From Squalus acanthias (Eukaryota), in contig CM059442.1 of the NCBI GenBank assembly GCA_030390025.1, positions 4,092,001 through 4,156,000 of the forward strand: a DNA stretch of 64,000 bases. Reading direction: 5' to 3'. Each line of letters starts with the position of its first letter. Within the stretch, counting starts at the first letter, position 1. Under the pieces are notes generated by a model. The model saw nothing but the letters and a program-made list of their open reading frames with translations. It had not been told where the DNA came from and made no database searches. Below are positions 264 to 62,751 of this stretch, piece by piece. Both the position numbers and the translations under genes were made by a program.

Positions 264-518
264 CGTGAACGTGAACATGAACAATTCGAGAAATCTTATC
301 GTCAATAGTACAATGGTACGATCCGCTGTCTTTTGAACTATTCACTCTAATGCTATGCATAGCGTTGCAATTATTCAACTTCATTGAGTGGATCATTCTA
401 TTGCCTTTGTAAAAGCCAACATCTTTCCACAAATAATACTTTCTGTACCGACAATTCAGATTCAGAACATCTCCTTCCATAACCGAAGGTGGGTCGACCT
501 GGAAGGCCACATCGCCTT
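264..518 (-). CDS. Gene 1 Ig exon 'A' (FcR/FCRL D2-like C2-set domain), intact
   Basis: 255 nt, ttag|...|gtatgt, phase 1-1. Translates EGDVAFQVDPPSVMEGDVLNLNCRYRKYYLWKDVGFYKG...DSGSYHC with both Cys. Tandem TAG/AAG acceptor at 516-520. Confidence 0.9.
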
Positions 519-1527
519 CTAATGTTGGGAACACAATTTCATGTTTATTGTTTAAGAAATGCTTAACTCAAACTGAGAACTGCTTCTACAACAGCCGAAT
601 ACACTGGACACGTTATATTGACCCAATCCCAGCTTCAATCAACTCTGGGACAAATGAAGCACAAAAAGGAAGCAGTTGACATTTGGTGCTGAATTGACTG
701 ATGGTTCCAATTGCGGTTTATTGATATCGCTCTCCTCGTGCAGCACTTCCCCACCATTTGTCCCAACTCTTCTTTGGTTGGGACTCTGAAAATAATCTAT
801 GTTGTGCAGAGAGTGTAAGAAACCCCTAAGCAGATAAGGGAATAGAAAATCCGGCACAAAGGATCACTAATTGCTTACCGAACCCGCTGTATATGCATTC
901 TACTGATTTCAATAGAAGAAAATTCCGCCGGATTCTGCGAGGAGCATTCCATCCACCCCACCAGATTCTGGAAGAAGTGCATACAGCTCAGTCTGCATTT
1001 TGACACGCCCAGCGGGCACAGTGTGCCGGAGGTGCGTTGTGAACAGAAGGGAAAGAGTACCCCAAATCTTCCAGGCCTCAGCTATAAGCCTGACTCAGCT
1101 TCACACCCCATCCATTCGCATGAAATCCGCGTATGTTGGGATGGCTTACATTGGTTTTCATACGGCACTCACACACGCACATCAGTCGCCCCTAGAGAAA
1201 TGCCACTCATGTTAACTCTGAAATGGGACTTTCAGGTTGCGGCCGAAGATTAGCAGTTCAAAGGGCTGCAGGACCTATGATCGGCAGGCGGGAGTTTGGG
1301 GGGGAGGGGTGAGTATTAAAGTCAAATAACTACCAACCTTTTTATCTCTTTAGGATGCCCTTGGAACCTCACAAAGACTTTGGTTCGGAGATTATGCCGA
1401 CGAAAGCTCCACCAGCAGTGTTCTTCAAGAGCCCTGCTCTCTTGGGCCCGCCATTGCTAAATGGGTAGGACATTTTTGAGGAAGACCGGAACACCCCCTC
1501 CAGACTCAAATTACATTGTACACAGTA

Positions 1528-1725
1528 TTTACAGCAGAGAAGCAGCTCATTCGGCCCAATAAGTCCATGCAGGTGCTTATCCTCCACATGTGCCTCTTCC
1601 CACCCTTCATCATCTACCCCATCAACATACCCTTCTGTTGCATTCTCCCTCATGTGTTTATCCAGCTTCAGCTTAAATGCAGTTTCCTCACCTATTCCCT
1701 GTGGGAGATAGATCCACATTCTAAA
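1528..1725 (-). mobile_element. Old CR1-type 3' fragment (paralog ~37540-37740)
   Basis: Degenerate WxxLPxxxVE..FKxxLDxxM C-terminus and cattcggccca tail motif. Confidence 0.6.
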
Positions 1726-2110
1726 AGCCCTCTAATTACTCACCCATATGTAGGCCGAGCGATATGTGTACGGGGATGCCCAAGAAATCGCCCAGCAGCG
1801 CCAGAGCACGGGGATGAGACTCAAATGAACTCCAACGACATTTTTGGATAGTTGTCAGGAGCAACCGAGAAGGACCCTTCCCCTCCTACGGATTCATGGA
1901 GCCCTTACATTTAACGGTGTGTGTTATTTTGTCATGTGTGCCCCAGAAACTTGCCTAAAGTGTCCAGCTTGGAATGTTTTCCCAGGAATTGCAGATATTT
2001 ACCAATTTCAACAGCTTCTGACCAAAGAATGTTCTTCGAAACGTTTGCCATCTTTCAGCAAATTACCAAACGGCTAATTTCGGAGGAAAACAACAAAGCC
2101 ACTGACCAAC

Positions 2111-2371
2111 CTGTTACGGTGACGTTTACTTCCGGTGAGACCCACTTCCTGTAGCCTATTTTGCGTTCACATCGATAAGAAGCCTCATCTGTAATTTCCA
2201 CTTCATTTATGATGTACTGAGATTGAGAAGTTCCATGTATTAACTCTTCTTTTCGATACCACAGGATGTATCCTGTTTCTTTCTGGTCAGGCACCAAACA
2301 TTTCAGGATAATTATTTCACCTGACAGCGCGGTTCTTGGGTTTACTTCAAGAGTTATAATAATATCAGAAG
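2111..2371 (-). CDS. Gene 1 Ig exon 'B' (D1-like), intact
   Basis: 261 nt, ttttcag|...|gttggt, phase 1-1. SDIIITLEVNPRTALSGEIIILKC...LWY...DEASYRC...VNVTVT. Confidence 0.9.
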
Positions 2372-2994
2372 CTGAAAATATGTAAGAAATATAAAATAAG
2401 TACAAATTGGAATAATTCAAACTACCGGTATCATATCCTGTAGAATATTTCCTTTAAAGTGCATCGATAGTTATCACTTCAGTAACGAACAACACATCGA
2501 AAACTGAAAAGCCGTAGAGACAAGTGTGGCATTAGAAAGTCACGTGTCTCTTCTGATGTTGAGCTGACGCCCCGTATGTTGTCCTTCAAACGTTCATCAA
2601 ATAACTTTTACTTCGAAACCCGATTCTACAAATCAGCAACAAACTCGGCACTCTGTCAAGGAAAGTCTGTTATTTATTCATCAGATGTTTTGAGACTAAA
2701 GCAGCTGGGATTGTTCTATTTGGAGCAGAGCTGGTCGAAGGGAGATCCGCCAGAATGGTATCAGGGAAGAGGGTCTTCAGTTTTGTGGACTTGCTGCACG
2801 CTTCATCCTAGTGATCATTTGGCAATTTTGTTCAAGTATGTAATATGTTTGATACACTGTCTTACGAGATACTGAGAGGCCTCTTTAAAAACGTTACTTT
2901 TCGGGACAAGAGCTGAGTTGACTATGGGTCAAAGTTCATCGACCGATGGTGGCCACTTCCAGCGGTTTGCCTCAGCAGCCAATAATAAAGAATG

Positions 2995-3370
2995 GGCGTG
3001 GCTCACTGGGTGCCCACTCGCCTCTGAGACAGTATATCGTGGAGTCGAACCCCACTCCAGAGACTCCCGGTGTCATTATTAGAAGATAAACGGAGCCATT
3101 CTGATGAGACATTATACCGAGGCCCCGTATTTCCAATAAGATGGGCGGGAAAGATCCCACAAAAATAAATGGAAGAGCAATCCCTCAACCAGCAGAAGTG
3201 AAAAGATGATCTGATCATTATTGCACTGTTACTTGCGGGAGCTTGCTCTGCCCCAATTGGCTTTCACTTATCTCACGTTACATCTGTGACTATATTTGAA
3301 AAGTATGTAATTGTCTGTGAAGTGTTATCGGAGGTCATGAAAGACGGTATATAAATGCAGATCTTTCTGT
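2995..3370 (+). mobile_element. tRNA-derived Deu-domain-like SINE, degenerate (paralog ~39010-39372)
   Basis: tRNA-like head (gtggctcactgg...gtcgaacccc), central gatgagacattataccgaggcccc, L2-like tail (gctatataaatgca-type). Confidence 0.6.
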
Positions 3371-3413: not shown

Positions 3414-3664
3414 CGATGGTGACCACTTCCAGGGGCTCACTCTTCTCCCATTTGTTCGACCACAGATCACACTGGTAAAAGCCTCCACTGCTACTGTCCG
3501 CAAGCGATTCATAATACACATTGTGAGTTTCATGTAAATATATATTATTTTTGAACCAATTAGCGAAAGTAGCTTTGCCACTGTATCGACGCTGCAGTTC
3601 AAATTCCTCTCCTTCTTTACGACACCACTGCTGGGATAACTAATTAGCACTTCCGGCCCAGGAG
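3414..3664 (-). pseudogene. Gene 1 Ig exon 'C' (N-terminal Ig domain), frameshifted
   Basis: 251 nt versus 252 nt in the paralog at 39417-39668. 1-nt deletion after ...SSGVV and expected first Cys reads CGT (Arg). Corrected frame gives WFKNN...GGFYQC...EPLEVVTI. Splice sites ctgcag| and |gtaggt intact. Confidence 0.85.
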
Positions 3665-4304: not shown

Positions 4305-4935
4305 AGGGAGACAGAGGAAAGGGAAACAAGGATAAAAGCAAAAGACAGGAAGGAGAAACACAAAAGTAGAAGGCAAAGAACTCAACGGTTTAAATCAAAA
4401 ATGGTCACAGTAAATAACAATTCATATAGCTGTGACAGAGTTAAAAAACAAGCCTGAAATCTTTGTGTCTTAATGCAAGGAGCATTCGGAACAAGGTGGA
4501 TGAATTAGCTGCGCAAATAAAGGTAAACGAATACGATTTGATTGGGATTACCGAAACATGGCTCCAGGGTGGACAAGGCTGGGAACTCAACATCCAGGGG
4601 TATTCAATATTTAGTAAAGATAGGCAAAAATGAAAGGTTGGTGGGGTAGCATTGCTGGTTAAAGAGGGGATTAACACAATTGAAAGGAAGTATATTAGCT
4701 CTTATGATGCGGAATCTGTATGGGTAGAACAGTAAATTAAAAAGGGGCAGAAAACGTTAGTGGGAGTGGTATTTAGAACTCCAAACAGTAATACGGAGGG
4801 TGGGTATGGCATAAAAAGGGATATTAGAGAAGCATGCAGTAAGGGCACAGCAGTCATCATGGGTGACTTTAATTTACATATAGATTGGGCTAACCAATTT
4901 AGTAAAAATACTGTGGAGGAGGAATTCCTAGAATG
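4305..4935 (+). mobile_element. CR1 LINE ORF2 endonuclease fragment
   Basis: LNARSIRNKVDEL...IGITETWL...GGVALLVK...IMGDFNLHIDW (APE motifs), with stops. Confidence 0.9.
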
Positions 4936-7170: not shown

Positions 7171-7429
7171 AGTAACTACAGTGGGTATTCCTATTCAGTG
7201 TCCGAACCAGGCGCTACCTAACGGGTGTCTATTGATCGGCATTTTTATTTAAGAGCTGATATTAACTTGCTCAAATCGGGTGCTAACAACCTCGAGATGG
7301 GATCGGTAGACTTACAATCCCGTTAACGCCGACATTCTACCCCCTACCTATTTTAGAAGTACGAATTGCACAACCGCCTACCTGTATCAGACGGTAGGCG
7401 TTTTAAATCTAACAATTAACTTAAATGTG

Positions 7430-8030: not shown

Positions 8031-9014
8031 TCTCTATCTATCCATCCATTTATTTCCTCAGTTATGATTACTCGCTGCCAATCCTCAGTTAAGTGAGCTG
8101 GCAATTACAGAGACCAATTTCTAGGACAGACTAGTCTTTAACGTATTGTGGTAGACATTAAACCTGGCGTTGCTGCTTAAAACTGGGGTTCTGATTGGCC
8201 TGACCGTGAATGAAACCGCCCAAATTACATTCCCACTGAATCAATGGAAATGATGATCGAGCGTTTCTCTTGTAGGTGGCGAACCCAGAATGTCAGTTTT
8301 ACTCTCGGGCGACCGGCTGAAAATTACTCCATTGCTGGATTGCTGCTATTCTAAAATTGGCAGCTATCATTCAACAAACCGAATCATTTTCAAGAATTGA
8401 CATTAATTTCATCATACCTTGTGTGGTCGATTGATGCGTGATATGCACTGCAAGAGAGAAGACAATGTAAATTATGTTTGATTATCTGTGACCATCTTCA
8501 CTGTTGAACTAAGCTGCAAAGCTGGAAGACAGCTGAATAGAGGAATCAGCCAGGGTGTGAAATTGGACTACGGCAGGGATATAAATCAGGCGGTAACATA
8601 TTTGCCGGCAGTCTATACGTGCCGAAAGTTATTCAGTTCAGTTGATGTAAATAAAAATTAATAATACATCGAATTATGCCAATTGACCCTGTCACGAACA
8701 AAGATAAGATATGTGTTACTGTTGAAGATCCTAATGGTCTGAGGACTACACGGAAATAATGCTGCCAGATGAAAGGAAACTGACAAAGATTGAAATGATT
8801 CATTGTTCTGAGAGCCACTGAGTGTGATTGTTCAGACAAGGAGAAGGGAACATTTCTTCAAAATTAGTGATAGTCCATTTATGATGGAAATCAGAAATCA
8901 CCTTTTCAGAAAATGTTTAGTGATGAATGTGATGCTCTCTCCACAAAAAACGCTGTGGACTCTGGGTTAAATTGGAGCTTTCAAGACGGGGATCGATTGA
9001 TTTTAGTTAAAAGA

Positions 9015-11716: not shown

Positions 11717-11747
11717 AGATGATCAGAAGGCGACAGATGTGCTTCAT
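11717..11747 (-). CDS. Gene 1 first coding exon (signal peptide part 1, MKHICRLLII)
   Basis: ATG at 11747, 31 coding nt then |gtaagt (phase 1). Exon acceptor cttttcag| before 11831. Conserved in the paralog at 44628-44658. Confidence 0.75.
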
Positions 11748-11929
11748 TTCGAATGCGGGGGATACCAAAAGAAGACGCTCTCCCTCTGTGAAGACGCGCG
11801 CTTCGGAGCAGCTGTTTTCAGTTCCTAATACCTGAAAAGTGTAATCATAGAATCACATTCAGCCGCTAACTCTGTTCGACTTCTTCAGTAACACACGCCC
11901 GCGCGCGCAGATCCCGAAACTGTACTTAC

Positions 11930-12010
11930 GGGCAATGTGGAGAGAGCGGCTGTAGCGAGTTTACCGAGTGCAGTCTGTAGCTGTGGAGATCACTGCCCAT
12001 GCGCCTGGCG
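11930..12010 (-). other. Gene 1 probable 5'-UTR exon (5' end uncertain)
   Basis: Strong donor |gtaagt at 11929-11924, 98-nt intron to the leader exon, GC-rich, conserved in gene 2 (donor next to 44841). Confidence 0.55.
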
Positions 12011-12038
12011 ACTGCGCACTGAGATCAGGCTGACTTCT

Positions 12039-22773: not shown

Positions 22774-25512
22774 ATAGAGATAGGAGACCAAGAAATAGAA
22801 ATGGATATAGGCAGATTTAGAGCGATACCGAGAGAGATACAGAGATAGAGAGATAGAAATAGACAGGTACATAGAGATAGAGATTTAGAGAAATAGAGAG
22901 AGATAGAGTAAGAATGAGAGTAACTGTTCGATTGAGCTACACTGGGATATACAGAGAGATATAGATATAGTTAGACGTCGAGATAGATATTGAGTTATAA
23001 GGGTAGAGCTGGACATAGACATGGAGATTGTTATAGGCATGGTGTCGGAGGTAGATGTAGAGTTCGACATATCGCTCGAGATAGACACAGACATAGACAG
23101 ATACAGAGACATATAAATAGACTTGACATAGACTATATACATTCAGAAAGTGTTCGAGATATTGATGCTGAATGGAAATGTTACCCCGAACAATCTACGC
23201 TTCGTCACATGCAGATCAGCTCTAACTTACCGGTGCTTTCGGCTGATCCCACAACTGCATACTCGGAATTATCTGCAGACTTCTCTTCACTCGGGTGTCG
23301 ACCTCTATTTCCAGTTGCCTCCCTTAGTGTAGAAATGTTCTCAGATATTCAAGTTGAACAATAATCAGCAACAACGGAAATATCGCTTTTAAATACAATG
23401 AAATACTGGAATAATTGTCAAAAGTCAGCAAACAGATTAGAAGAGACAAATCTTTAAAATCGCAAGGCCACATCAATTGTACAAGTTGAAGAAGCTCAAG
23501 GTAGACAGGTCGCCAAGCTCTGGCACTTTCCTACCAATGGGTCTGAAGACGTTGTCTCAGCAGATCGTGAATGACCTCACTGATATTTCCCAGAGTTCAT
23601 TGCACATGACTCACTGGGGTAGGAATTGGTCCATGACGACGTAGGAAAGCGAGAGGTAACGAATTGGCTGTCACTTTAGAAGTCCTCCAGAATATTTTTG
23701 AACCATTGAAGTTTATACAAATGATAATCGGCGGAGTGCAAAATGCGCTACGGATTTGCTTGCGCCCGCTGTGCGCTGTGGCCCCAGATGAAGTTATACG
23801 GCTCATCGTTGAAGATTGTAAAGTGGTAAGAGTGACTGCTGGAGGTGGTTATATGATCGACATTACCGCCTGGGCAGTAAGAATCAACTGGGACAAGTAC
23901 AGAAATGTAAAATCCGGTGGAGGAATCAAATGCCGGTACAGCACTCGCCGGATTTTCCTAACTTCCAAATTGTTTCACAGGAAAATCGGGCGCTATCTGT
24001 AATGGACGGCTGACCAGTAACGCCAGTTTTATTCCGGAGCGGCAAGTTGCTAAATTAATGTTAATATTCACTTTTACCGTCCAGCATAAAGCGGGCGGTA
24101 GAGGATTTGCCGCTCTTTCTACACTCCAGTGGATTTTGGAAATGGAAATCAGGCGTTTTGTAAAACTGGCCGGCGATCCCTTACCACCTGTTTTCAACTC
24201 CACCGGAAAAGCAAACTTCACACCATTGTGTCCTAATAGGAAGGGAGATGTCAATACCGAATAAACGTAGGAATGTATCTTTTATATTTGGGGAGCAGTT
24301 TGGTAAAAACAGTGGGTGCAGTGTTCAAAGTTAATGAGGGAAGTGAAGATAATGTTGAAATATATCGCCACCGTGCAAACAATATACATCCAGAAAATAA
24401 CCTTCAAATTTTAGTTGGTATTGGTGCAAGACCATGGGGTAAAAATATCATTTTTTCCTGCCATTTGTGCGATATTAATCATGTTGAAGGAACGCAAAGA
24501 GGAGAGTATGGTGGAGAGGTTCACACATCCTTTACACAACACGCCGGATTTTCCTTTCACAGTACTTAATGTAACAGGAATCAAGCGGCTCTGCTTTCGG
24601 GAAGTGATCCTTCCCACCAGATCTTCCTTTCTGTGCTCTGCCCAGCAGATGTCCCACATCCGGCGTAGGGAGTACAGTGTTGATATCATTTTAATAAAAT
24701 AAGCATACTAGACATTTGTCGAACATAGAGTCTGGGTCACTAGATTAGTTCCAAAACCGGGGAGACAGATCATTGAATGGAGTTGGAGTATTTTGATACA
24801 ATTCAGTCTTGAAAGAAGAGTGAGAAGTGTTTGGTATAATTATTTATGATTATGAGGGGGTTGGGGAATATGTATACAGATGTGTTTTTATACCGAAGCT
24901 CAAGAAGAGAGTACAACAGTTTCAAATTGAGGGCCATGGAAGCATATCGGAAATTCAAGCAACTTTCAATTGGAGTTTGAAACACATGTGGAAAGATGTA
25001 TAGGAGAGTCGAACAATAAACTGCGACTGGATTCAGAAGTAGACGAGATATTCCCTCCCAAAAAAGAATGTTCAAGGTTATTAAATTTGGAACTTTATCC
25101 TTAAAAGCTTGTTGAGTTAAATGGCCACTGTCTGAGTTGTCACTGTGTGAAAGTTGCTAAACTTAAATTCATGCACAATCGGTCTGCACACTAAATTCTA
25201 GAATGTTTCAGTTCCCTGAGATTTACATGAGGATTAAATTTGAGCATTGAAGAATGGCCAAGCTCACTGTGTGATTGAAGAGTTTGGGGTATAAAGTATT
25301 TTTGGACGGTGCTGGAGAGCAGGGTGCAGAGAATCTCCAACGGTGTTTACACTCCGCCCAAAATTCGTTTACAAGTCACTGGAATCTCATATCGTGCGGA
25401 CCGTAAAATGATTTGTAATCATCCCTTTTACTGTACCACGCAGGGCGAATTTCACCCTGTTTACGTTCGGAAGTCCAGGGACAACTGACATAAGTTAGAA
25501 AAAGATCACTTC

Positions 25513-25852: not shown

Positions 25853-25883
25853 CCCAGCGAATGTGAGATTCTTGAGGAATTGT
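25853..25883 (-). CDS. Gene 2 cytoplasmic mini-exon (DNSSRISHSLG)
   Basis: 31 nt, ctattttattcag|...|gtaagt, phase 1-2. Confidence 0.7.
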
Positions 25884-26405: not shown

Positions 26406-26507
26406 CTTGTTTCATGTTGGGAAGATTGACGCAAATCAGTGCAATAAGGCCAGCGACAAGAGAAAGTGTAAGTACTGAGGCTCTGATCGCGGTTGTGGGA
26501 CTCTGCA
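26406..26507 (-). CDS. Gene 2 transmembrane exon
   Basis: 102 nt, tttcattccag|...|gtgagt, phase 1-1. QSPTTAIRASVLTLSLVAGLIALICVNLPNMKQ, ~20-aa hydrophobic span preceded by Arg. Not in the ORF track. Confidence 0.85.
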
Positions 26508-29994: not shown

Positions 29995-30281
29995 CTATCA
30001 CTGAAACCGTAACAGGATCGCTGTGTAGAGGACGTCCTGCCGCTTTCTTGGAAACAGCGCACCTGTAATCCCCTTGGGTGCTTTGGTTGACTTCAGCGAT
30101 TTGGTAATAATTGTGGTTAGGTTGGACTCCTCTCGGAATAATTCTTTATTCGGGTCTTTGTAGAATATGTAGGTAATCGGGGTAGAACCGTTGGACACTA
30201 AGCAGGTTAACCACGCTGTGTCTCCTTCTATTAACGCTTCACCAGGGCTGATTGCCAGTACCGGTTTGGACACTGGGATTC
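29995..30281 (-). pseudogene. Gene 2 Ig exon 'D' (FCRL D5-like), frameshifted
   Basis: 287 nt versus 288 in gene 3. IPVSKPVLAISPGEALIEGDTAWLTC...GSTPITYIFYK; 1-nt deletion near 30106; restored frame gives QGDYRCAVS...VTVSVI. Confidence 0.85.
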
Positions 30282-31175: not shown

Positions 31176-31454
31176 GTCTGACTGAAACTGAAACCTGATT
31201 GCTCCGTTTCGTCACCTCACTGTTCAAAGTAATTGCTTCACGCCAATAAATCCCCGAATGGTCCGGCCGAGATGCCTCCTTGATGTAATAGTTGTGTTCT
31301 GCTGCTGAAATGACAGCTTGTCCATCTTTGTAAAATCCGTATCTCAAAGAAGAACTGGAGCGAAATATTTCAAAAAAACAGGCGAGTTTAAACTGTTGGC
31401 CCTCAAATAATTCAGCTTCAGACTCAGTCCTCAATGTCGGTTCGGAGAAGACCT
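31176..31454 (-). CDS. Gene 2 Ig exon 'E' (D3-like), open but second Cys lost
   Basis: 279 nt, ttatag|...|gtgagt. VFSEPTLRTESEAELFEGQQFKLAC...SGIYWR (Arg where gene 3 has Cys in YQC). Confidence 0.85.
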
Positions 31455-32641: not shown

Positions 32642-32921
32642 CTTTTATCGCAATGGAAATCTCATCACTCTTCTTTTGCACATCGCGGTCGAAAACATTT
32701 GCTTCACACAGGTAAGTCCCCGAGTCCTTCAACGAAGCTGCCTCAATGCGATTATATTTTTTTGCATGAATTCAAGATCAGAGCTTTGCTATTTTTGTAA
32801 AATGTGTATTGAAGCCCAATATTGGACCGCATTGTTTCAACAAAACAGATGAATTTTAACTGGTCTCCCTCAAATATTTCAGCTGTAGGCTCAGTCCTCA
32901 GTTTAGGTTTGGCGAAGAGTT
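32642..32921 (-). pseudogene. Gene 2 Ig exon 'F' (D3-like), +1 frameshift in an A7 run
   Basis: 280 nt versus 279 in gene 3. LFAKPKLRTEPTAEIFEGDQLKFIC...; removing one A at 32757-32763 restores DSGTYLCEAN. Confidence 0.85.
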
Positions 32922-33965: not shown

Positions 33966-34220
33966 CGTGAACGTGAACATGAACACTTCGAGATTTCTTA
34001 TTGTCAATAGTACAAAGGTATGATCCGCTGTCTTTTGAACTATTCACTCTAAAGCTATGCAGAGCTTTCCGATTATTCAACTTCATTGAGTGGATAATTC
34101 TGTTGCCTTTGTAAAAGCCAACATATTTCCAGTAATAATCGTTTCTGGACCGACAATTCAGATTCAGAACATCTCCTTCCAAAACCGAAAGTGGGTCGAA
34201 CTGGAAGGCCACATCACCAT
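33966..34220 (-). CDS. Gene 2 Ig exon 'A' (D2-like), open
   Basis: 255 nt, phase 1-1, paralog of 264-518. GDVAFQFDPLSVLEGDVLNLNC...DSGSYLC. Confidence 0.88.
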
Positions 34221-38126: not shown

Positions 38127-38386
38127 CTGATACGGTGACGTTTACTTCCGGTGAGACCCACTTCCTGTAGCCTATTTTGCGCTCACACCGATAAGATGCT
38201 TCATCTGTAATTTCCGCTTCATTTATGATGTACTGAGATTGAGAAGGTCCATGTATTAACTCTTCTTTTCGATACCACAGGAAGTATCCTGTTCCTTTTT
38301 GGTCAGGCACCAAACACTTCAGGATAATTCTTTCACCTGACATGCGGTTCTTGGTTTTACTTCAAGAGTTAAAATCATATCAGAAG
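38127..38386 (-). pseudogene. Gene 2 Ig exon 'B', 1-nt deletion
   Basis: 260 nt versus 261 in gene 1. Plus strand cctgacatgcggttc versus cctgacagcgcggttc near 38343. Confidence 0.85.
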
Positions 38387-39416: not shown

Positions 39417-39668
39417 CGATGGTGACCACTTCCAGAGGCTCACTCGTCCGCCATTCAGTCGACCACAGTTCACACTGGTAAGAGCCTCCACTGCTACTGT
39501 CTGCAAGCGATTCATAAAACACATCGTTAATTTTATGTTAATATTCATTATTTTTCAACCAATAAACGTAAGAAGCTTTGCCACTGTATCGATACTGCAG
39601 TTTAAATTTCTCTCCTTCATTTACGACACCACTGCTGGGATAACTAACCAGCACTTCCGGTCCAGGAG
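39417..39668 (-). pseudogene. Gene 2 Ig exon 'C', in-frame stop
   Basis: 252 nt. PGPEVLVSYPSSGVVNEGEKFKLQY(expected Cys)RYSG...WLKNNEY* (TAA 39538-39540), continuing in frame to GGSYQC. Confidence 0.85.
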
Positions 39669-42192
39669 CTGCAGGAAGACAATAAAAGGAATTTATGATT
39701 AGAAATATTAAAACTTGTAATCTTTGCACTAATCACTGTAGTAACTACAGTGAGTTATTCCTAATCAGTGTCCCAATCAGGCGTTACATATCGGGTGTCT
39801 GTTGATCAAAATTTCTATTTAAGAGGTGATATTAACTTGCTGAAACCGAAATGCGGTCGGTAGACTTACCATCCCTTTAACGCCGACATTCTGCTCCCTA
39901 CCATTTTCAGAAGGACCAACGGTTGGGCGGCACAACCGCCTCCCTTTATCAGGCCTTAGGCGTTTTAACTATAACAATTAACTTAAATCTTAACAGTTTC
40001 TTCTTACTCAGTGTATCAACTCCTTTCATGATTTTGAACACCTCTATCATAGCATACCTTAACCTTTTGCGTTCAAAAGAGAACAGCCCTAGTTTCTCCA
40101 TGCAATTGAAATCTCGTGTCCCTGGTACAATTTAGTAAATTTCTTCTGCATCTTCCAGCATTAAATTGCATCTGCCATGTGTCTGGCCATTTTCCCAGTC
40201 TGACTTTATGCTTCTGAATTCTCTTTCTATCTTCAGCATAACTTGCTACATTTCCGAGGTTCGTGACTTCTGCATGGTTTGTAATTGTGCCCATGTATAC
40301 CCAAATCTAGGTGATATATAATTATCAGACAGAACAGTGAACCCAATACAGATCTCTGCGAGACACCGCTGAATATTCTCTTCACAACTGCTCTCTGCTT
40401 TTTGTCTTAGCCCATTTCTTATCCACACTGCCACTGCCCCTTATTCAAATTGGTTTCAATTTTGCTAACAAGTCTGTTATGTGCAACTTCATTTAGCACT
40501 TTTTGAAAGTCTATACAGAACATTAACGCACTAATTTCATCAACACTTGCTGTTACATCATCAAAGATCTGTCTATTTATCCATTCATTTATTTACTCAA
40601 TTACTATTACTCGCTTCCAATCCTCAGGTGTTTGAGCTAGCAGTTACCCAGACCAATTTATAGGTCATGTTGTCTTTAATATATTGTGGTAGACATTAAA
40701 CTTGGAACTGAGACTTAAAGCTGGAGTTCTGCTTGGACGTCCGTGAGAGAAAACGCCCACTTTACATTCCCAGTGAGTCAATGAAAATGATGATCGAGCA
40801 TTTCTCTTATAGGTCGCGAATCCAGAACGACAGTTTTACGCTCGGACCAACAGCTGACAATTAATCCATTGCTGGATTGCTGCTGTCCGATAGCTATAAA
40901 TTGGAAGTGTTCATTCCACAAACTGGATTATTACCAATAATGTACATTATTGTCATCATAACTTGTGTGGTCGCCTGATGAGCAATTTGCACTGCAAGAG
41001 AGAAGACAATGTAAAATATGTTTCATTATCTGTGACCATCTTCAATTTTGGCCTAAGCTGCTAAGCTGTAAGGCAGTTGAATTGTGGAAACACCCAGGGG
41101 GTGAAATTCGACTTCGGCAGGGACACAAAACAGGTATTAACAAATTTGCCGCCAGTCTATACGTGCCGCCAGGTATTCAGTTCAGTTGATGTAATTATAA
41201 AACAATAATGCATCGAATTATGCCAATTGACCCTGTCACGAACAAAGATAAGATTGTTGTTGTTGTTGAAGATCCTAATGATCTGAGGACTTCACGGAAA
41301 AATTGCTGCCAGATGAAAGGAAACTGACAAAGGTTGAAATGATTCAATGTTCTGAGAGCCACTGAGTGTGATTGCTCTGTCAAGGAGAAGGGAACATTTC
41401 TTTAAAATCAGTGATAGTCCATTTAGGATGGAAATCAGGAATCACCTTTTCACAAAATGTTTCGTGATAAATTGAAGCTCTCTCCACAAAAAGTGTTGTG
41501 GACTCTGGGTTAAATTGGAGCTTTCAAGACGGAGATCGATTGATTTTAGTTAAAAAAATGAAATAAATAGTTGCATTTATATAGCGCCTTTCAAGACCTC
41601 AGAACTTCCAAAAGCCCTTTACAGCCACTGGAACACTTTTGAAGTGTCGTCACGGTAGGACATGTGGAAGCCTATTTTCACACATTGATGCTGATAATGA
41701 CCAGATAATCTGTTTTTGTTATGTTGATTGAGGGACATCCCCAGGTCACCGGGGATAACATCCCCGACGGGGCCTCCCTTTAATTTCTCATCCGAAAGAC
41801 GGCGCCTCCGACAATGCAGCACTCTCTCAGCACTGCAATGGAGTTGGAGCCTAGATTTTTGATATTCAGTCTGGAGTGCGGCAGGAATCCACGAACCTTC
41901 TGAGTCAGAGGCGAACATGCTACCCACTGAGCCTCAGCTGAATCTAGTTGAGTAAGGTTATGAATAGATATTGAGCAAAGGGGCTTAATTAGAGTTAAGG
42001 TACAGATCAACCATGATATAATTGAATGACAGAGCATCCTCGAAGGGCTGAATGAGCTACTCCTGTTCTTATGTTTCTATCATCATTTAAATCAACTTTG
42101 TCCGAATCAGAATCACAAATTTTGAATGGGTTGCAACTGTTGCTGATGAAGACAATACATGAACAAGCAGCTGGTTGAAGAAATCTTTTGAC

Positions 42193-44627: not shown

Positions 44628-44658
44628 AGATCATCAGAAGGCGACAGATGTGCTTCAT
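44628..44658 (-). CDS. Gene 2 first coding exon (MKHICRLLMI)
   Basis: 31 coding nt then |gtaagt; whole exon 44628-44742 is 115 nt, same as in gene 1. Confidence 0.75.
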
Positions 44659-44961
44659 TTCGAATGCGGGGGATCCCAAAAGAAGTCGCTCTCCCTCTGT
44701 GAAGACGCGAGCTTCGGAGCAGCTGTTTTCAGTTCCTTTTACCTGAAAAGTAAAATCATAAAATCACATTCAGCCGCTAACTCTGTTCGACTTCTTCAAT
44801 AGCACACGCCCGCGCGCGGAGATCCCGAGACTTCACTTACGGGGAATGTGGAGAGAGCGGCTGGAGCGAGTTTCCCGAGAGCAGTCTGCAGCTGTGGAGA
44901 TCAGTGCCCATGCGCCAGGCGACTGCGCACTGAGATCAGTCTGACTTCTGTCCACATTGGA

Positions 44962-48000: not shown

Positions 48001-51000
48001 AATCATAATTGTATAGCAAATTTTCAGTCCATTTCTGTTACTCGTTCGATATATTCTGACAAGGAAATCTTTTTCAGCTCGAATATAAGGATCAAGAAAG
48101 TGATTTCTAAGGACAGGAAGATCACTTTTATTTTGGTCAATATATTGGTGGAGAAGTAAAACCATCTCGGCTTTTAAGAGTCTCCAAGTAAAGTAACTGC
48201 AAAATTTGCATAATTTAACTTCCTGTTTCCCCTACGAAATGCATATTTTCTTTCTGTGGAGATCCATCTCACTTAACTGAGCATTTACACAGTTTAGCAA
48301 TCAGCAGGTGTGCATAAGGGTACTACTGTAATATCAGAGATTAGTGACAGATCAGAGACAGAGATAGAGATTAGAGATTAGAGAGGGAGATAGAGTCAGA
48401 GACAGAGATAGTGATAGAGAAAGAGATAGAAATAGAATACAGAGAAAGTGAGATATTTATCAACATAGACAATGATAGGCAGAGAGGCAAAGAGAGGGTT
48501 GAGACGGACATAAATTTCTAGATAATGGGTGAAAATGAACTGGAGCTAGAGACAGAGATACAGATAAATTATTTGATACAAATAGAGCTATCTAAATATA
48601 TGGAAAGAGATTAGAATGGACGTAGAGATAGGGGAGGTAGAGATAGATATCTGAATGGCCGTCGATAGAGAAATAGAGAGAGATGGAGTGATCGTGAGAG
48701 AGAGATACATAGAGATGGTACTTCTAGAAAGATAGAGAAGTTGAGAGAGAGAGAGAGAGAGAGACATAGATTGAGAGATAGAGAGATAGTGCGATAGAGA
48801 TATGTAAAAATAGCGTTGGAGATGCTGTTAGAATGAGAGAGAATGCAATATCCGTAGAGATGGATATAGGAGAGATTGAGTAAGAGATAGAAGTAGAGAT
48901 AGAGATAGAGACAAATATATAAAGATAGAGCTAGACATAGACATGGAGATAGGTACAGACACGGTGATGGAGATTGAAGTAGAGATCTATATAGAGCAAG
49001 AGATAGGAACAGAGATAGACAGAGACATAGGTATTGACAAATATATATACGTAGACTAGACATAGACATAGACATTGAGATAGAGTTAGAGATATAGAAG
49101 CTTAATATCCAAACAGTGAAGAAGAAAATCTAATGCTAGATTGTGCTAAGATTACGCAGATGAGGAAATATAATTTCTACGGGGCTTTTCCCAATGTCTC
49201 GTCGTAACTTCGGTGGAATTTCGGTGGAAAACTTGTTGAAAGGCTCATCTCTCTGGAGATATCGCCGATCTTCTGCCGAAGTGATAACGGAATTGGAGAG
49301 TGTTCCCGATGGAAATGTTAGCCCGAATAATCTACGGTTCATCACGTGCAGATCATGTCGAGCTTACCGGTGCTTTGGGCTGATCCCACATCTTCATACT
49401 CGGAATTGTCTGCAGGCTCCTCTTCACTTGGTGGTCGAGCTCTATTTCCAGTTGCCTCCCTTAGTGCAGAAATTTTCTCAGAGATTATAATTGAACAATA
49501 ATCACCAACAACGGAAATATCGCTTTCAAATAAAATGAAACAGTAGAATAATTGTCTAAACTCAGCAAGCAGATTACAAGAGACATAACTTTAAAATCGC
49601 AAGGCCACATCAATTGGACATGTTGAAGAAGCTCAAGGTAGAAGGTTCCCCGAGCTCTGGCTTTTTCCTCCCAAGGGGTCTGAAGTCGTTGTCTCAGCAG
49701 ATCCTAAATGACCTCACTGATATTTCCCAGTGTTCACTAAACTTGACTCACTGGAGTTGAAATTGGTCCTTGAGGACAGCGCAAAGCGAGAGGTAGCGAA
49801 TTGGCTGTCCGTTTCGAAGACCTCCCGATCATTTTTGAAGCATTGAAAATTATGGAAAAGCAAATCGGCGGAGTCCAAAATGCGCTAAGGATTAGCTAGT
49901 GCTCGCTGCGGCCCCAGATGAAGTTACACTGCTCATCGTTGAACATTGTAAAGTGGTAAGTGTGACTGCTGGAGGTGGGTATATGATCGACATTACCGCC
50001 TCGGCAGTAAGAATCAACTGGGACAAGTACAGAAATGAAAAATCTGGTGGAGGAATCGAAGGCCAGTAACAGCACTCGCCGGATTTTCCTAACTTCCAAA
50101 TTATTTCACAGGAAAATGGGGCGCTATCTCTCATGGACGGCTGGCCAGTAACGCCAGTTTATGCCTTGCGGCAAGTTGAAAAGTTGATGTTAATATTAAC
50201 TTTTACCCTCCAGCAGAAAGCGGGAGGTAGAGGATTAGCCGCTCGTTTTAGACTCCAGCCGAATTTGGAAACGAAATCAGGCGGAGTGTTAAACTGGCCG
50301 GCGATCCCTTACCACCTGTTTTCAACTCCACCGTCAAAGTAAACTTCACACCATTGTGTCCTAAATGGAAGGGATTTGTCAATATCGAATAAATTGAACA
50401 ATGCATCTTTTATATTTGGGTATCAGTTGGGGGAAACAGTGGTGCAGTGTTGCAAAGGAATTCGGAAAGTGAAGAGAATATTGAGATACATCGCCAACGT
50501 GTAACTTATAATTCAAGACTGATCCCCTTAAAATTATAGTGGGTATTGTTGCAAGATCGTGGGGTAAAATATTTTTTTCCTCCCCTTTGTGAGTGAAGAA
50601 TCATGTTGAAGGAACGCAACGATGTGAATATAGTGGAGAGGTTCACACATCCTTTACAGATCACGCCGGATTTTCCCCTCACGGTACTTAATGGAACAGA
50701 ATTCAAGCGGCTCTGCTTTCAGCAAGAGATCGTTCCCACCAGATCTTCCTTTCTATGCTCTGCCCAGCAGATGTCCCACATCTGGCGCAGTGAGTACAGT
50801 GTTGATATCATTTTAATAAAATAAAAATACTAGTATCTTGTTGCATATAAAATCTGGGACTCTAGATTAGTTCCAAAACCAGGGAGACAGAACCTTGAAA
50901 GGAGTCGGAGTATTATGATCCAATTCAGTCTTGAAAGAAGTGTGACAAGTTATTGGTATATTTATTGATGATTATGAGGGGATTGGGGAATGAGTATACA

Positions 51001-51110
51001 GATGTGTTTTTGAACCGAAGTTAAAGAAGAGAGTACCACAGTTTCAAATGAATGGCCACAGAACGTATCAAAAGTTCAAGCAACTTTTAATAAGAGGTTG
51101 AAACACATGT

Positions 51111-52947: not shown

Positions 52948-52978
52948 CCCAGCGGTTGTGAAATTCTTGAGGTATTGT
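52948..52978 (-). pseudogene. Gene 3 cytoplasmic mini-exon homolog lacking its acceptor
   Basis: Aligns to 25853-25883, donor gtaagt kept, acceptor reads tatgcga instead of tattcag. Confidence 0.6.
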
Positions 52979-53472: not shown

Positions 53473-53574
53473 CTTGTGACTTGCTGGGAAGATTGACGAG
53501 AACCAGTGCAATCAGAGCAGTGATAAGAAAAAGTGCAAGAACTGACGCTCTGGTCGTGGTTGTGGCAATCTGGA
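53473..53574 (-). CDS. Gene 3 transmembrane exon
   Basis: 102 nt, tttgtttccag|...|gtgagt. QIATTTTRASVLALFLITALIALVLVNLPSKSQ; Arg conserved. Confidence 0.85.
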
Positions 53575-55204: not shown

Positions 55205-55261
55205 CAATCACTGCAACCACGACGAATTCGTTCTGCAGAGGAGGTTCTGTCATATTAACAA
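55205..55261 (-). CDS. Gene 3 candidate 57-nt stalk mini-exon derived from the 3' end of a D-type Ig exon
   Basis: catttatctgcag|...|gtgagt, phase 1-1, VNMTEPPLQNEFVVVAVI; similar to the end of exon D (EPPLTSKFVAVAVI) and shares its downstream intron. Confidence 0.5.
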
Positions 55262-56007: not shown

Positions 56008-56310
56008 CTGCTACCGTGACTTCGATGTAATTGCTGGTTGTGTTAAATATTCGTTCATAGGTCCCTCTGTTGGTCGCGGCACAGTGATAGCGCCCTCCAT
56101 GGCCTATCTGGAATGAGTTGATAATGAGCTCACTGCCGTCCGTGTTTAAGTGATAAGATTCGCTGATGTTTTCAAACTGTTGGTTTTTTCGGTACCAACG
56201 GAAATGCGGTGCAGTGCCTCTCTTCACCAGGCACTGGAGAACGAGTCGGCAACCCGCTGAAATCTCAGTTTTGTTGGTATTGGAAGTGAGAGAAGCACCA
56301 GCTACAGGAA
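56008..56310 (-). CDS. Gene 3 Ig exon 'G' (D4-like), intact
   Basis: 303 nt, ttcctttag|...|gtaaca, phase 1-1. PVAGASLTSNTNKTEISAGCRLVLQCLVKRGTAPHFRWYRKN...GGRYHCAATN...IEVTVA. Confidence 0.88.
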
Positions 56311-57470: not shown

Positions 57471-57758
57471 CTATCACTGCAACCGCGACGAATTTGCTAG
57501 TTAGAGGAGGTTCTGCCGCCTGGTTTGAAACAACCCAACTGTGATCTCCTTGGGTGTTTCTGTTGACTTCCCCGAGTTGGTAACTAATTTAGGTTAGGTT
57601 GGATTCCTCCCGCTAGAGTTCTTTACTCGCGGCTTTGTAGAATATGTAGGTAATCGGGGTAGAACCGTTGAACACTGAACAGGTCAATTAAGCAGTGTCT
57701 CCTTCCATTAACTCTTTACCAGGGCTGATTGCCAGTTCCGGTTTTAACACTGAGATTC
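57471..57758 (-). pseudogene. Gene 3 Ig exon 'D', decayed
   Basis: 288 nt with three in-frame stops (57688-57690, 57613-57615, 57589-57591) and DYRC changed to DHSW. AG/GT retained. Confidence 0.85.
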
Positions 57759-58807: not shown

Positions 58808-59086
58808 GTCTGACTGAAACGAATAACTGCTTACTCATTTTCTTCACCTCACTGTTCAAATGAATTGCTTCACACTGGTACATCCCCGAATCTTCTGGTC
58901 GAGATGTTTCCTTGACGTAATAGTTGTAGGCTGCCGCTGAATTGAGAGCGTGTCGATCTTTGTAAAATCCGTATCGCAAAGAAGAACTGGAGCGAAATAC
59001 GTCAACCAAACACTCTAGTTTTAACTGTTGGCCCTCAAATAATTGCGCTTCAGACTCAGCCCTCAATGTAGGTTTCGAGAAGAGCT
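58808..59086 (-). CDS. Gene 3 Ig exon 'E' (D3-like), intact
   Basis: 279 nt, phase 1-1. LFSKPTLRAESEAQLFEGQQLKLEC...DSGMYQCEA. Confidence 0.9.
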
Positions 59087-59463: not shown

Positions 59464-60458
59464 ACATAGATACATAGATACATAGAAGATAGGAGCAGGA
59501 GTAGGCCATCCGGCCCTTCGAGCCTGCTCCGCCATTTAATGAGATCATGGCTGATCCTCCAATTCAGTATCCCGTCCCCGCCTTCTCTCCGTAACCCTTA
59601 ACCCCTTTTGCCTGTAGAAATATATCTAATTCCCTCTTAAATATATTTAATGAGCTGGCGTACACTGCCCTCTGTGGCAATGAATTCCACAGGTTCACCA
59701 CCCTCTGAGTGAAGAAATTCCCCCTCATTTCTGTCCTAAATGGTTTAGCCCTTATCCTTAAATTATGTCCTCTAGTTCTGTTCTCACCCGCCAAGGGAAA
59801 CATTCCTTCTGCATCTAGTCTGTCTAGACCTGTCAGAATTTTATACACTTCTATGAGGTCCCCTCTCAATCTTCTAAACTCCAGTGTGTACATCCCTAAA
59901 CTACATAGTCTCTCCTCATAGGTCAATCCCGCCATTCCTGGTATCAGCCTGGTGAATCGCCGCTGCACCCCCTCCATGGCAAGAACATCTTTCCTCAGAT
60001 GAGGCGACCAAAACTGTACACAGTACTCGAGGTGTGGTCTCACCAGTGCCCTGTACAGCTGCAGCAAGGTATCCCTGTTCCTGTATTCCAACCCTTTTGC
60101 TATGAAGGTCAGCATACCGTTTGCCTTCTTGACCGCCTGTTGCACCTGCATGCTCGCCTTCAGTGACTGGTGTACAAGAACACCCAGGTATCTCTGTACT
60201 TCCCCCTCTCCCAATTTATTGCCATTTAAATAATAATTTGCCCTCCCGTTCCTGCACCCAAGGTGGATAACTTCGCACTTGTCCACATTATAGTGCATCT
60301 GCCATTTATCCGCCCAATCACCCAGTCTGTCCAAATCGCTCTGGAGCTTCCTGGTCTCCTCCTCTGAGCCCACCCCCCCTCCTAGTTTAGTGTCGTCTGC
60401 AAATTTGGAAATGCTGCATCCGACTCCCTGATCCAGGTCATTAATGTAAATTGTGAAT
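59464..60458 (-). mobile_element. Young 5'-truncated CR1 LINE
   Basis: Uninterrupted 269-aa ORF2 C-terminus (59564-60373), FADDT just upstream, (acatagat)n tail; absent from the gene 2 intron (~31670). Confidence 0.93.
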
Positions 60459-61429
60459 TGTGAGTACTGAAGTCTCCTTGATCATTGATGCAGCAACTGC
60501 AAATTTTGTAACATTCATGTTAAAAGATCAGCTACTCACAGTACAATTCTTTGAAATACACTCCCGACACAGGGTCGATAACTTGCCCCTTGTTTACAGA
60601 TTCCCTGCTCCTTTGAAAATGCCAAGCTACGGTTATGATTGGCAGGATCTAACAGAATGTAAGTGGGAGCCCAGGACATCAGAGCCTCAGACTTTAGTGG
60701 CCTCAGAAGTTTTGTCTCACCCTCCACCCGCTCTACTGAAATCGGAGGCGGTGAAAATTCAACCTTTGTGCAAAACCGGTGCTAGCAGATTGGTCACCCT
60801 TGATAAACACAGGCCAATTTCTATTCCATTGTCTGCCAATCAGTTATTGCGCTCTCCAAGTTAAATTTTACCACCGAGATTTCAACTGTCAAAGATCTCC
60901 GGTGCTAATAAGTGGTAAAGCATTGTCTGATTAAATACCCTGCTGTTCCTGAGCATGTTCTGCTCGGTGCTGATTGAGCCAGACAGAAACAGAGGAGGTA
61001 ACTTTACCTTGGGACCATGGGGTAAAATGCGCGGTGTCGAATCTTGAACCAATTGCACACCACGCACGATTTTCCTGTCCAAAGAAGATAATGGGAGCCA
61101 AAAACGGGCAGGAAATATAATGGGCAGCAAATTCAATATCGCCCATTCCACACTATTGCAGGCAGCTAATATTAGCCAATGGTATTGGACACTGGTCTTT
61201 AAACTTTGCAACTCATACAAGTGCGGTTTTCAGAAAATGTATGGGTTGTGCAACAACCGGAAGTCATTGTGATTTAAACAGAACTCGTTCAAAATTGATT
61301 TGTTGCGTGATAAACTTTTGGGTATGTCCTTTACAAGACTGGATCCCTCCTGTATGTTTATTTACCTATAATCCCCTGAATAATTATTTTAATGAAAGAT
61401 AAAAGATAATTACACCTGGTTGTCGTTAC

Positions 61430-61708
61430 CATTTACTGAAATGGAAACGTCATCACTCTTCTTTTTCACACCGCGGTCGATAGCATTTGCTTCACACAGG
61501 TTGTTCCCCGAGTCAGAGAACGAAGCTACCCCCATGTGCTTAGCGTTGACGTAAAAATTCAAATTCAGAGCTTTGCCATTTTTGTAAAATGAGTATAGAA
61601 GCCCAATATTGGACCGCATTGTTTCAATAAAACAGATGAATTTTAATTGGTCTCCCTCAAATATTTCAACTGCAGGCTCAGTCCTCAGTTTAGGTTTGGA
61701 GAATAGTT
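61430..61708 (-). CDS. Gene 3 Ig exon 'F' (D3-like), open
   Basis: 279 nt, phase 1-1. LFSKPKLRTEPAVEIFEGDQLKFIC...DSGNNLC (Tyr of the YxC motif replaced by Asn). Confidence 0.88.
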
Positions 61709-62099
61709 CTGTGAAAACAGAATATGGATTGAAAGGTAACAAGTCATATCAGAGTTAAACAAATAGTAGAGATTAATAATAAGAGCAAGGCAATGCCGAG
61801 AATCGCCACGAGGAGCTTCTGTACTTATTAGTAACCAAAAGCTGTATTATGGAACACTCGAGCAGGCAGTATTATTATATTGTTTTGGAATTCTTCTCGC
61901 TCATTTGGTTACGGAGAACTTAATCCGCTTAATATATACTGGCTGAAACAGGAACTCCACGCAGTACAAGATTTATTGAAGAAAGAATCCTTCAAAAGAT
62001 CTTTGCTCTTTTAGCTATTCCCTGCTGCGTCTCACCATCCACAATAACCACGGTGAATTCCGCAAATATTCACAGCTACATCGCTCTGTCACCACCCAG

Positions 62100-62420
62100 C
62101 CATCACATTGGCTGGAAGGTATGATTCTGTGATCATCACTATGACAGGCTATTGCTTTACTGGTCTGTGGGACAGCTCCCCCAATTTTGCCACAATTCCC
62201 TAGATGCTAGGGAGGGGGACTTTGTAGGTTGACTGTGTGTCTTATCCGTGTCCGAATATGGTGCCTAGTTCAATGCCAGGTGGTCCTCCAAGTTTTAATC
62301 TTATTGTTTTTTTCTAGCGTGTTGATAAAATTGAGTTGCTTGCTATGCTATTTCAGAGGGCAGTTATAATTCAACTACATTGCTGTGGGTGTGGATTTAT
62401 ATAAAGGCCAAGGATTCTTA
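62100..62420 (-). mobile_element. LINE fragment at the point where gene 2/gene 3 homology breaks
   Basis: Sequence switches at ~62090 to LINE-like sequence (gtgggacagctcccccaattttg...ggactttgtagg); family and strand inferred. Confidence 0.4.
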
Positions 62421-62493
62421 GAATCCATTAAATCTTTCAACAGCTCATTACCAGAAAATATAATGAAAATTAAGAAAAAATGCATTGACCAAC

Positions 62494-62751
62494 TTGTTAC
62501 GGTGATGTTTATATCCAGGGAGACCCACATCCTGTAACGTATTTTCAGTTCACACCGATATAATGCCGCATCTGACTCTTTAGCGTTTTCTATGGTGTAC
62601 TGAGTTTCAGCAGTCTCTGCTATTACATGTTTATCTCGATACCACAGGAAGGGGAAATCTTCTCTCCTTTTCCAGTAAGGCATCAAACATTTCTGGATAA
62701 CAATGTCACCTGATGTTGGATTCACTTCCACAGTTAAAATCATATCAGAAC
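62494..62751 (-). CDS. Gene 3 Ig exon 'B-like' (D1-like), open
   Basis: 258 nt, tttttgcag|...|gttggt. SDMILTVEVNPTSGDIVIQKC...LWY...DAALYRC; divergent paralog of exon B. Confidence 0.85.

Follow-up and report, generated by a model that had tools for sequence, protein, structure and literature searches.

A damaged tandem array of FCRL-like immunoglobulin-domain receptor genes in the shark Squalus acanthias

Two published surveys leave the Fc receptor-like (FcRL) proteins no place in the cartilaginous fish. In one they were not found in sharks and their origin was placed with the bony fish (Akula 2014, PMC4016189), and a review of 2026 (PMC13337447) gives them as absent and raises the question of how sharks cope in the absence of Fc receptors. 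We have analyzed a stretch of 64,000 nt from the shark Squalus acanthias (assembly GCA_030390025.1, contig CM059442.1, positions 4,092,001 to 4,156,000, forward strand), called the window hereafter, in which three damaged genes arranged in tandem are built from the exons of receptors with multiple immunoglobulin (Ig) domains. The window is probably part of a birth-and-death array of elasmobranch leukocyte receptors of the FcR/FCRL lineage, comparable to the XFL array of frogs.

The closest known proteins are predicted RefSeq entries from sharks and rays, automatically named Fc receptor-like 2/3/5/6 or PECAM-like (among them Heptranchias P0005, Heterodontus P0151 and Chiloscyllium P0043), that contain all seven types of Ig exon found in the window at no more than 77% identity. 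They have leader, transmembrane (TM) segment and proximal tail in common with the window genes, and a tandem arrangement is suggested for them too. The window copies differ in being damaged, in having an arginine in the TM segment, and in that the distal exons bearing immunoreceptor tyrosine-based inhibitory motifs (ITIMs) were not found in them. The frog XFL and FCRL-like proteins, as set out in PMC2413239 and seen in Pseudophryne P0225, share the domain types D1, D2, D3, D5 and D6, phase-1 exons, gene arrays and domain shuffling. Among 47 frog proteins, one has the order D1-D1-D2-D3-D3-D5-D6 and six have the block D1-D2-D3-D3-D5-D6; identity between shark and XFL proteins is about 25%, and the D4 domain and NxxR activating TM segment of XFL are not seen in 35 shark and ray relatives. 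Mammalian FCRL1-6 and FcgammaRI resemble the shark family in their D1-D2-D3 types, predicted geometry, the start of a D5-like repeat, a first leader exon of 31 nt and tyrosine-bearing tails, and differ from it in a second leader exon of 21 nt (30 nt in the shark) and, in the published alignment (PMC2413239), in having no D6. PECAM1 (CD31) is collinear with the shark proteins over its last four domains at 21-29% identity and has an ITIM-type tail; unlike them it has D1-D2 that are not D2-type, falls in its own clade and has a fixed six domains, against two to nine. Sturgeon FCRL-like proteins share D2 and D3 clades with the shark exons that we designate A and E/F. Compared by description only, the published teleost LITRs have D1-D2 followed by KIR/LILR-like domains and lack D3, D4 and D5, most of the shark ectodomain, according to PMC2413239.

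The window has a G+C content of 42%, and remnants of long interspersed nuclear elements (LINEs) and large internal duplications run across it. Self-BLAST blocks of 76-92% identity define three paralogs, all on the minus strand, that together span positions 264 to 62751 (Table 1). There are 14 Ig exons of seven kinds (A to G), all bounded by AG and GT and of phase 1-1, and these are accompanied by a first leader exon with 31 coding nt, a second of 30 nt, a TM exon of 102 nt and two short tail exons. In both respects, the three same-strand paralogs and the exon repertoire, the mapping agrees with a first-pass annotation made from the sequence. Of 11 exon pieces submitted to Pfam, nine matched Ig_2 or Ig_3 and two, both fragments of exon C, matched nothing; a search with 14 relatives revealed no additional Ig exons in the window, and Rfam gave no matches. 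Tandem duplication, accompanied by the gain and loss of phase-1 Ig exons, gave rise to these genes. Gene 1 enters from outside the window and reads B-E-F-D-G-TM-c1-c2, with no A exon; neither its leader nor a C exon was found within the window. In gene 2 the order is L1-L2-C-B-A-E-F-D-TM-c1-c2, its G exon having been removed by a 1.4-kb deletion with a junction near 28555-28565, downstream of exon D. Gene 3 reads L1-L2-C-B-A before it, like gene 1, is cut by the edge of the window. All seven exon kinds are together in none of the three copies. The order C-B-A-E-F-D-G, which the first-pass annotation had placed in one gene, is therefore a composite of the three. It is found whole in three of the 35 relatives, and in a fourth when no distinction is drawn between E and F. 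No flanking gene lies inside the window, neither of the CD2/SLAM group nor IGSF9, DUSP23 or TAGLN2, linkage to which would mark an FcR/FCRL locus.

How general is this family in cartilaginous fish? A profile search with exons E and F returned 1149 proteins at E ≤0.001, and 7999 candidates were scored in the search for relatives. The closest relative, P0005 of Heptranchias perlo, has 47-76% identity to exons B, C, E, D and G, and when it was used as the query 35 of its 60 hits, including the top 33, came from 14 shark and ray species in RefSeq; sturgeon FCRL-like proteins are the next hits after these. The automatic names of the 35 relatives are Fc receptor-like in 22, PECAM-like in nine and otherwise in four. 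Among the 7999 candidates scored there were no chimaera members, and a word-index search of longer proteins, with exon F as its only query, found no homolog in 72 candidates. The relatives are type I membrane proteins with two to nine Ig domains, of which the fullest simple order is D1-D1-D2-D3-D3-D5-D6. They display 28 different domain strings, isoforms included, and the presence of several on one contig within a species suggests tandem arrays. The cartilaginous-fish origin of the copies, which had been proposed as probable, is supported by these sequences, as is a shark-wide, FCRL-like expansion.

Each exon type was compared with reference domains from named frog, eagle, sturgeon, PECAM1, CD22 and sialoadhesin proteins. 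The D1-D4 labels of the eagle domains were checked on FCRL4/5, and the D5 and D6 labels of the frog domains on the published alignment (PMC2413239). Trees and profiles used 12 of the 14 window exons, with gene 2 B and gene 3 C left out. The large domain tree comprised 106 rows, 32 of 138 having been dropped beforehand, and approximately unbiased (AU) tests were performed on trees of 30 and 33 rows. An Esox protein named CD22-like (P0193) has domains that group with those of sturgeon FCRL-like proteins; it is probably misnamed, and was dropped as an outgroup.

The best match of exon A in the PDB is FCRL5 D2, the window A exons score 48 bits against the D2 profile and at most 33 elsewhere, and D2 is the best match for 14 of 23 A domains. 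In the 106-row tree exon A joins frog, bird and sturgeon D2 with support of 98/96, in a clade that contains no row of PECAM1 or CD22, and the Shimodaira-Hasegawa-like approximate likelihood ratio test (SH-aLRT) gives 96 in two further trees. Exons E and F choose the D3 profile in 70 of 70 cases, a profile far deeper than those of PECAM1, and the best PDB match of exon F is FcgammaRI D3. Exon B finds FcgammaRIII D1 as its best PDB match, and the D1 profile is best for 15 of 26 B and 14 of 19 C domains. The N-terminal half of exon D is closest in the PDB to the D5 repeats of FCRL5. Thus the assignment of A to D2 and of E and F to D3 in the first-pass annotation is upheld.

Exon G had been assigned to D4, and here a different type is preferred. 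The D6 profile is its best match in 27 of 27 cases, at 65 bits compared with 33 for a D4 profile built from just two sequences. It groups with frog D6 and the fifth domain of the eagle proteins at 100/94 in the 106-row tree and 98/94 in the 30-row tree, and by eye it matches the Xenopus D6 block in the published alignment (PMC2413239). Placing G with PECAM1 D6 is rejected (AU p 0.005), while placing it with D4 is disfavoured and not formally rejected (p 0.062). A PDB search with exon G gave generic I-set proteins, with FCRL4 D4 as a weak match, and the ESM Atlas gave generic Ig clusters only. Exon G is thus best read from these comparisons as D6, giving the order D1-D1-D2-D3-D3-D5-D6 rather than one that ends in D4. 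D6 was described as Xenopus-specific in Guselnikov 2008 (PMC2413239); two eagle proteins (P0237 and P0238) have D1-D2-D3-D4 followed by a fifth domain that falls in the D6 clade, so D6 is not confined to frogs, and it is now shown in sharks and birds. The seven-domain order had also been suggested as that of a shark array, and a shark-specific order is ruled out by frog P0225, where the same order is present.

At the level of whole proteins, Chiloscyllium P0043 is collinear with FCRL5 (158.9 bits over 440 residues), and aligns with frog P0225 as a single block, residues 24-661 on 24-661, at 201 bits; the best PECAM1 among the other references gives 142 bits and a snake CD22 gives 68. Each of six shark queries, compared with 16 references, scores highest with an FCRL-like protein of frog or sturgeon. 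An AlphaFold model of the whale-shark (Rhincodon) protein P0173, with the exon order B-A-E-F-D, has a mean predicted local distance difference test score (pLDDT) of 88.8. It superimposes on D1-D3 of FcgammaRI with Z of 19.3 over 255 residues at 3.0 Å; the overlays cover 252-255 residues at 3.0-3.6 Å, with a template modelling score of 0.81 by target length. All 50 structural matches listed are Fc receptors or FCRL5. That the family is built like an FCRL is well supported by these comparisons, and its orthology to FCRL, with PECAM1 left outside, is likely.

Several observations weigh against that assignment. The D3 clade includes D1, D3 and D4 of PECAM1, so that a D3-type domain is not exclusive to FcR/FCRL. 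In the 33-row tree the support for A with D2 falls to 83/80, and a union of A with Siglec is not rejected (AU p 0.155). The trees leave B and C unplaced (B, C and D1 together have AU p 0.218 in the 33-row tree), and B domains choose the Siglec C2 profile in 11 of 26 cases; the D1-like character proposed for B and C is therefore backed by PDB matches, profiles and the structure model, and not by the trees. Exon D is best with the PECAM1 D6 profile in 31 of 31 cases (57 compared with 34 bits, in a set without mammalian D5), and D with frog D5 and D with PECAM1 D5 have the same AU p of 0.113 in the 30-row tree. Its earlier typing as D5 consequently stands on the PDB side and is opposed by the profiles. 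When the last four or five domains are concatenated, the trees show a trichotomy of shark, frog FCRL and PECAM1, and the best five-domain tree (LG+G4, 15 of 19 rows) joins frog and PECAM1 at 74/74. The top Foldseek E-values belong to PirB, at a template modelling score of about 0.2, an effect of length. Nor is the overlay of P0173 independent, because the alignment held frog and bird FCRLs and AlphaFold was trained with FcgammaR structures. Lastly, the leader is split into two exons of which the first has 31 nt, as the first-pass annotation had recognized for FCGR1 and FCRL, and the second has 30 nt in genes 2 and 3, where mammalian FCRL1-6 and FcgammaRI have 21 nt. According to PMC2413239 only a fraction of XFL genes meet the 30(31)/21-bp rule, so this defines mammalian FCRL1-6 and FcgammaRI and not the whole lineage.

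In a rival reading the sharks expanded their receptors independently, starting either from an ancestor that FCRL and PECAM1 shared or on the PECAM1 side. The products would serve in adhesion or inhibition through their ITIMs and would have kept FcR-like N-terminal domains from that ancestor. The exons E-F-D-G are collinear with D3-D4-D5-D6 of PECAM1, the PECAM1 D6 profile attracts exon D, and nine of the 35 relatives were automatically named PECAM-like. In the two concatenated trees the union of shark and PECAM1 is not rejected (p 0.436 and 0.25), and neither is that of shark and frog (p 0.355 and 0.215). However, no domain of the sampled PECAM1 proteins falls in the D2 clade that holds exon A, exon G is separated from PECAM1 D6 by the AU test, and the PECAM1 references form their own clade without shark proteins at 99/99 and 100/100, in a set that contained no true shark PECAM1. 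The fixed six domains of PECAM1 also contrast with the shuffled shark family. We consider such an origin unlikely. A paper by Guselnikov in 2002 is said, by its title, to link FcR and PECAM-1.

Descent from CD22/Siglec- or CEACAM-type receptors is very improbable: it could draw on the Siglec-like B domains, on unions of A or B with Siglec that a small tree does not reject (p 0.155 and 0.226) and on CEA as the second match (67 bits) in one whole-protein PDB search, yet the N-terminal exons are short and C2-like (84-87 codons), any V-set hits being weak and partial, snake CD22 and sialoadhesin reach 50-78 bits compared with 149-201 for the best FCRL-like reference, and the structural matches are Fc receptors. 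An N-terminal V-set domain was not seen; in genes 2 and 3 the series of Ig exons opens with exon C (252 nt in gene 2). Grouping with CD22/Siglec or PECAM1, in which the first-pass annotation had seen the test of its assignment, was looked for; A joins D2 and G joins D6, while exon D and the concatenated trees are compatible with PECAM1.

On the FcR/FCRL assignment, the exons B-A-E are predicted from the model of P0173 to fold into a bent, FcgammaRI-like D1-D2-D3 head carried on a D3-D5-D6 stalk. By analogy with the established biology of FCRL and ITIM receptors, the head would bind ligand, Src-family kinases would phosphorylate the tail, and recruitment of SHP-1/2 or SHIP would damp lymphocyte activation. 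In the tails of the relatives, ITIM-consensus motifs are present in 28 of the 30 that bear a TM segment, and a terminal motif of the YxNL type in 25 of 30. A shark immunoglobulin is one possible ligand, for which polymeric IgM would be the best candidate by avidity; the greater part of our expectation lies with an MHC-like or microbial ligand. Two D2 tryptophan positions of the classical FcgammaRs are not kept in the 23 shark A domains, and these we take to be ligand-contact positions. Ig binding would be possible without them, since human FCRL5 is described as binding two IgG via D1-D3. The loop that follows the first cysteine of exon A is variable and rich in tyrosine and tryptophan, and may form a ligand surface.

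In a single-cell study of bamboo shark (PMC11372145), which uses automatic FCRL names for shark genes, those named fcgr1a-like, fcrl3 and fcrl5 are high in B cells. Three PECAM-like loci are markers there of clusters of B cells, T cells or erythrocytes, and one of them is present in 47.7% of B cells and 3.2% elsewhere. Judged by these automatic names only, it is plausible that the PECAM-like loci belong to the present family; the bamboo-shark loci LOC122544513, LOC122562260 and LOC122562262 are candidate members.

Genes 1 and 2 depart from the relatives at the membrane. Both have an arginine in the TM segment, which is absent from all 30 TM-bearing relatives, where the segment is uncharged, and both retain only the proximal tyrosine motif. 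Distal tail exons of the relatives found at best 0.6 bits in the window, compared with 30.8 and 23.1 bits for the proximal-tail control. No stop, frameshift or cysteine loss is seen to be shared between the E, F and D exons of the two genes, so the TM arginine and the loss of the ITIM exons probably arose while the ectodomain was intact. Possibly, then, genes 1 and 2 represent an activating-type branch; drift can also explain these features. There is no asparagine three residues before the arginine in either gene, as would be required by the NxxR activating motif. Among the sturgeon proteins, P0009 and P0088 have similar ectodomain ends and two types of TM segment (arginine plus histidine with a short tail, and uncharged with tyrosine motifs), and look like paired receptors.

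The window genes are heavily damaged. A stop or frameshift is present in six of the 14 Ig exons and a canonical cysteine is absent in four, so that seven carry one or the other, and two splice sites are mutated (the donor of gene 2 L2 and the acceptor of gene 1 c1); in the named relatives a canonical cysteine is absent from one of 196 domains. The pooled ratio of nonsynonymous to synonymous substitution (dN/dS) is 0.86 (0.60-1.21) for genes 1 and 2, and 0.87 (0.52-1.81) for genes 2 and 3. The four frameshifts in the array are each of a single base, and some could be assembly errors. Assembly error as the sole cause is ruled out, because four stops, four cysteine losses, two splice changes and the deletion of exons are of another kind than single-base indels. 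Gene 2 is a pseudogene, dead by substitutions alone (a stop, the donor and two cysteines). Genes 1 and 3 are damaged, and whether they are dead is less certain than for gene 2. Three of the four stops lie in exon D of gene 1, the skipping of which keeps the frame, and the damage in gene 3 is confined to exon C.

It could be argued, in keeping with membership of the FcR/FCRL lineage, that genes 1 and 3 are alive and that the gene 1/2 branch provides an activating-type partner. Gene 1 would then skip D to give B-E-F-G and a TM segment with arginine, with a short, motif-free tail that would pair with an adaptor carrying an immunoreceptor tyrosine-based activation motif, and some frameshifts would be errors of assembly. 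A Heterodontus isoform (P0006) is indeed without D, about 11 stops would be expected under full neutrality (the sum of simulated per-exon rates) where four are seen, and activating XFLs carry an N-terminal TM arginine and short tails, as stated in PMC2413239. But the TM motif resembles TxxR or AxxR and not NxxR, the dN/dS intervals include 1 and the ratio for the TM exon pair is 1.6, exon E of gene 1 is without the tyrosine of YxC, its c1 acceptor is mutated, and gene 2 is dead by substitution. Moreover FcR gamma was not found in sharks in the 2014 survey (Akula 2014, PMC4016189), and genes 1 and 3, on which the argument turns, both run off the window. On balance we doubt that these genes are alive.

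In the literature searched, which mostly excluded subscription journals, no work on an FCRL family of sharks was found, and PMC5278576, PMC10562807, PMC6795676 and PMC12227049 gave no relevant text; such a study may nevertheless exist. The suggestion that the family may be undescribed stands in part. We found no characterization, but its members are already named FCRL or PECAM-like in databases. The family has apparently been annotated by pipelines and left uncharacterized, at odds with the statement repeated in reviews. If the assignment to FcR/FCRL holds, this lineage dates from the earliest jawed vertebrates and equals antibodies in age, and the family offers cloneable candidates for a shark IgM Fc receptor, for which binding of IgM, IgW and IgNAR can be tested. 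A paper by Haynes in 1988 reportedly concerns, from its title, the shark IgM Fc receptor. A bolder history, to which we give little weight, would have sharks keeping an ancestral jawed-vertebrate receptor D1-D1-D2-D3-D3-D5-D6, of which FcR/FCRL kept the head and PECAM1 the stalk. D6 would be ancestral, the family would include the IgM receptor of 1988, and genes 1 and 2 would be the first activating partners of a paired system older than the bony fish. The window itself is a weak entry point, as its copies are damaged and intact relatives are already named FCRL.

Table 1. Exons of the three receptor genes in the window (window coordinates).
Feature	Position	Strand	Remarks
Gene 1 exon B, D1-like Ig	62494..62751	-	open frame; about 74% DNA identity to B of genes 2 and 3
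Gene 1 exon E, D3 type	61430..61708	-	open frame; Tyr of YxC replaced; directly after B
Gene 1 exon F, D3 type	58808..59086	-	intact; best PDB domain match FcgammaRI D3
Gene 1 exon D, D5/PECAM-like type	57471..57758	-	three in-frame stops, second Cys lost, splice sites intact
Gene 1 exon G, D6 type	56008..56310	-	intact; 76% identity to Heptranchias domain
Second D exon, 3′ remnant with donor site	55205..55249	-
Gene 1 TM exon	53473..53574	-	Arg at N-terminal edge; fewer basic stop-transfer residues
Gene 1 tail exon c1, 31 nt	52948..52978	-	acceptor AG mutated
Gene 1 tail exon c2	49368..49459	-	one Tyr motif; no distal ITIM exons found downstream
Gene 2 upstream non-coding exon, probable	ends 44841	-	predicted from sequence
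Gene 2 leader L1, ATG, 31 coding nt	44628..44742	-
Gene 2 leader L2, 30 nt	40962..40991	-	donor GT mutated
Gene 2 exon C, D1-like	39417..39668	-	in-frame stop; first Cys lost
Gene 2 exon B	38127..38386	-	1-nt frameshift
Gene 2 exon A, D2 type	33966..34220	-	intact
Gene 2 exon E, D3 type	32642..32921	-	frameshift
Gene 2 exon F, D3 type	31176..31454	-	open frame; second Cys lost
Gene 2 exon D	29995..30281	-	1-nt frameshift
Gene 2 TM exon	26406..26507	-	Arg as in gene 1
Gene 2 tail exon c1, 31 nt	25853..25883	-
Gene 2 tail exon c2	23231..23322	-	one Tyr motif; distal ITIM exons not found
Gene 3 upstream non-coding exon, probable	ends 11930	-	predicted
Gene 3 leader L1, ATG at 11747, 31 coding nt	11717..11831	-
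Gene 3 leader L2, 30 nt	8418..8447	-	intact
Gene 3 exon C	3414..3664	-	1-nt frameshift; first Cys lost
Gene 3 exon B, D1-like	2111..2371	-	intact; best PDB match FcgammaRIII D1
Gene 3 exon A, D2 type	264..518	-	intact; remainder of gene 3 beyond window

The paralogs do not diverge uniformly. The B exon of gene 1 is 74% identical to the other B exons, while its E, F and D exons are 81-85% identical to those of gene 2; with so distant a B exon, gene 1 may combine parts of two paralogs. The blocks 9650-12949 and 42574-45850, which contain the probable promoter, non-coding exon and L1, are 92% identical between genes 3 and 2, compared with 83-86% for the blocks downstream, pointing to gene conversion or constraint. 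Upstream of the leader, 12084-12293 and 44995-45204 on the minus strand match the odd N-terminus of a Mustelus model (P0008, E 9e-5), and probably represent conserved 5′ DNA or a repeat that was mis-annotated as coding in that model.

Further blocks are common to the tail regions. The intronic block between c1 and c2 (23450-24990 and 49580-51113) is 85% conserved, has several open frames of 80-120 codons and is possibly an old element. Another, at 16325-18171 and 47109-48961, lies behind the last tail exon, beside GA-rich simple repeats that occupy the place expected for the distal tail exons. No Pfam family was assigned to the regions 23600-24700 and around 17000-17400; the minus-strand translation of the block behind the last tail exon may represent a decayed piggyBac transposase. 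Decayed LINE copies are present at 4705-7175, 19450-21675, 34715-37008, 51094-51529 and 59750-60457. They hold remnants of reverse transcriptase (PF00078) and endonuclease (PF14529), and their insertion sites differ between the paralogs.

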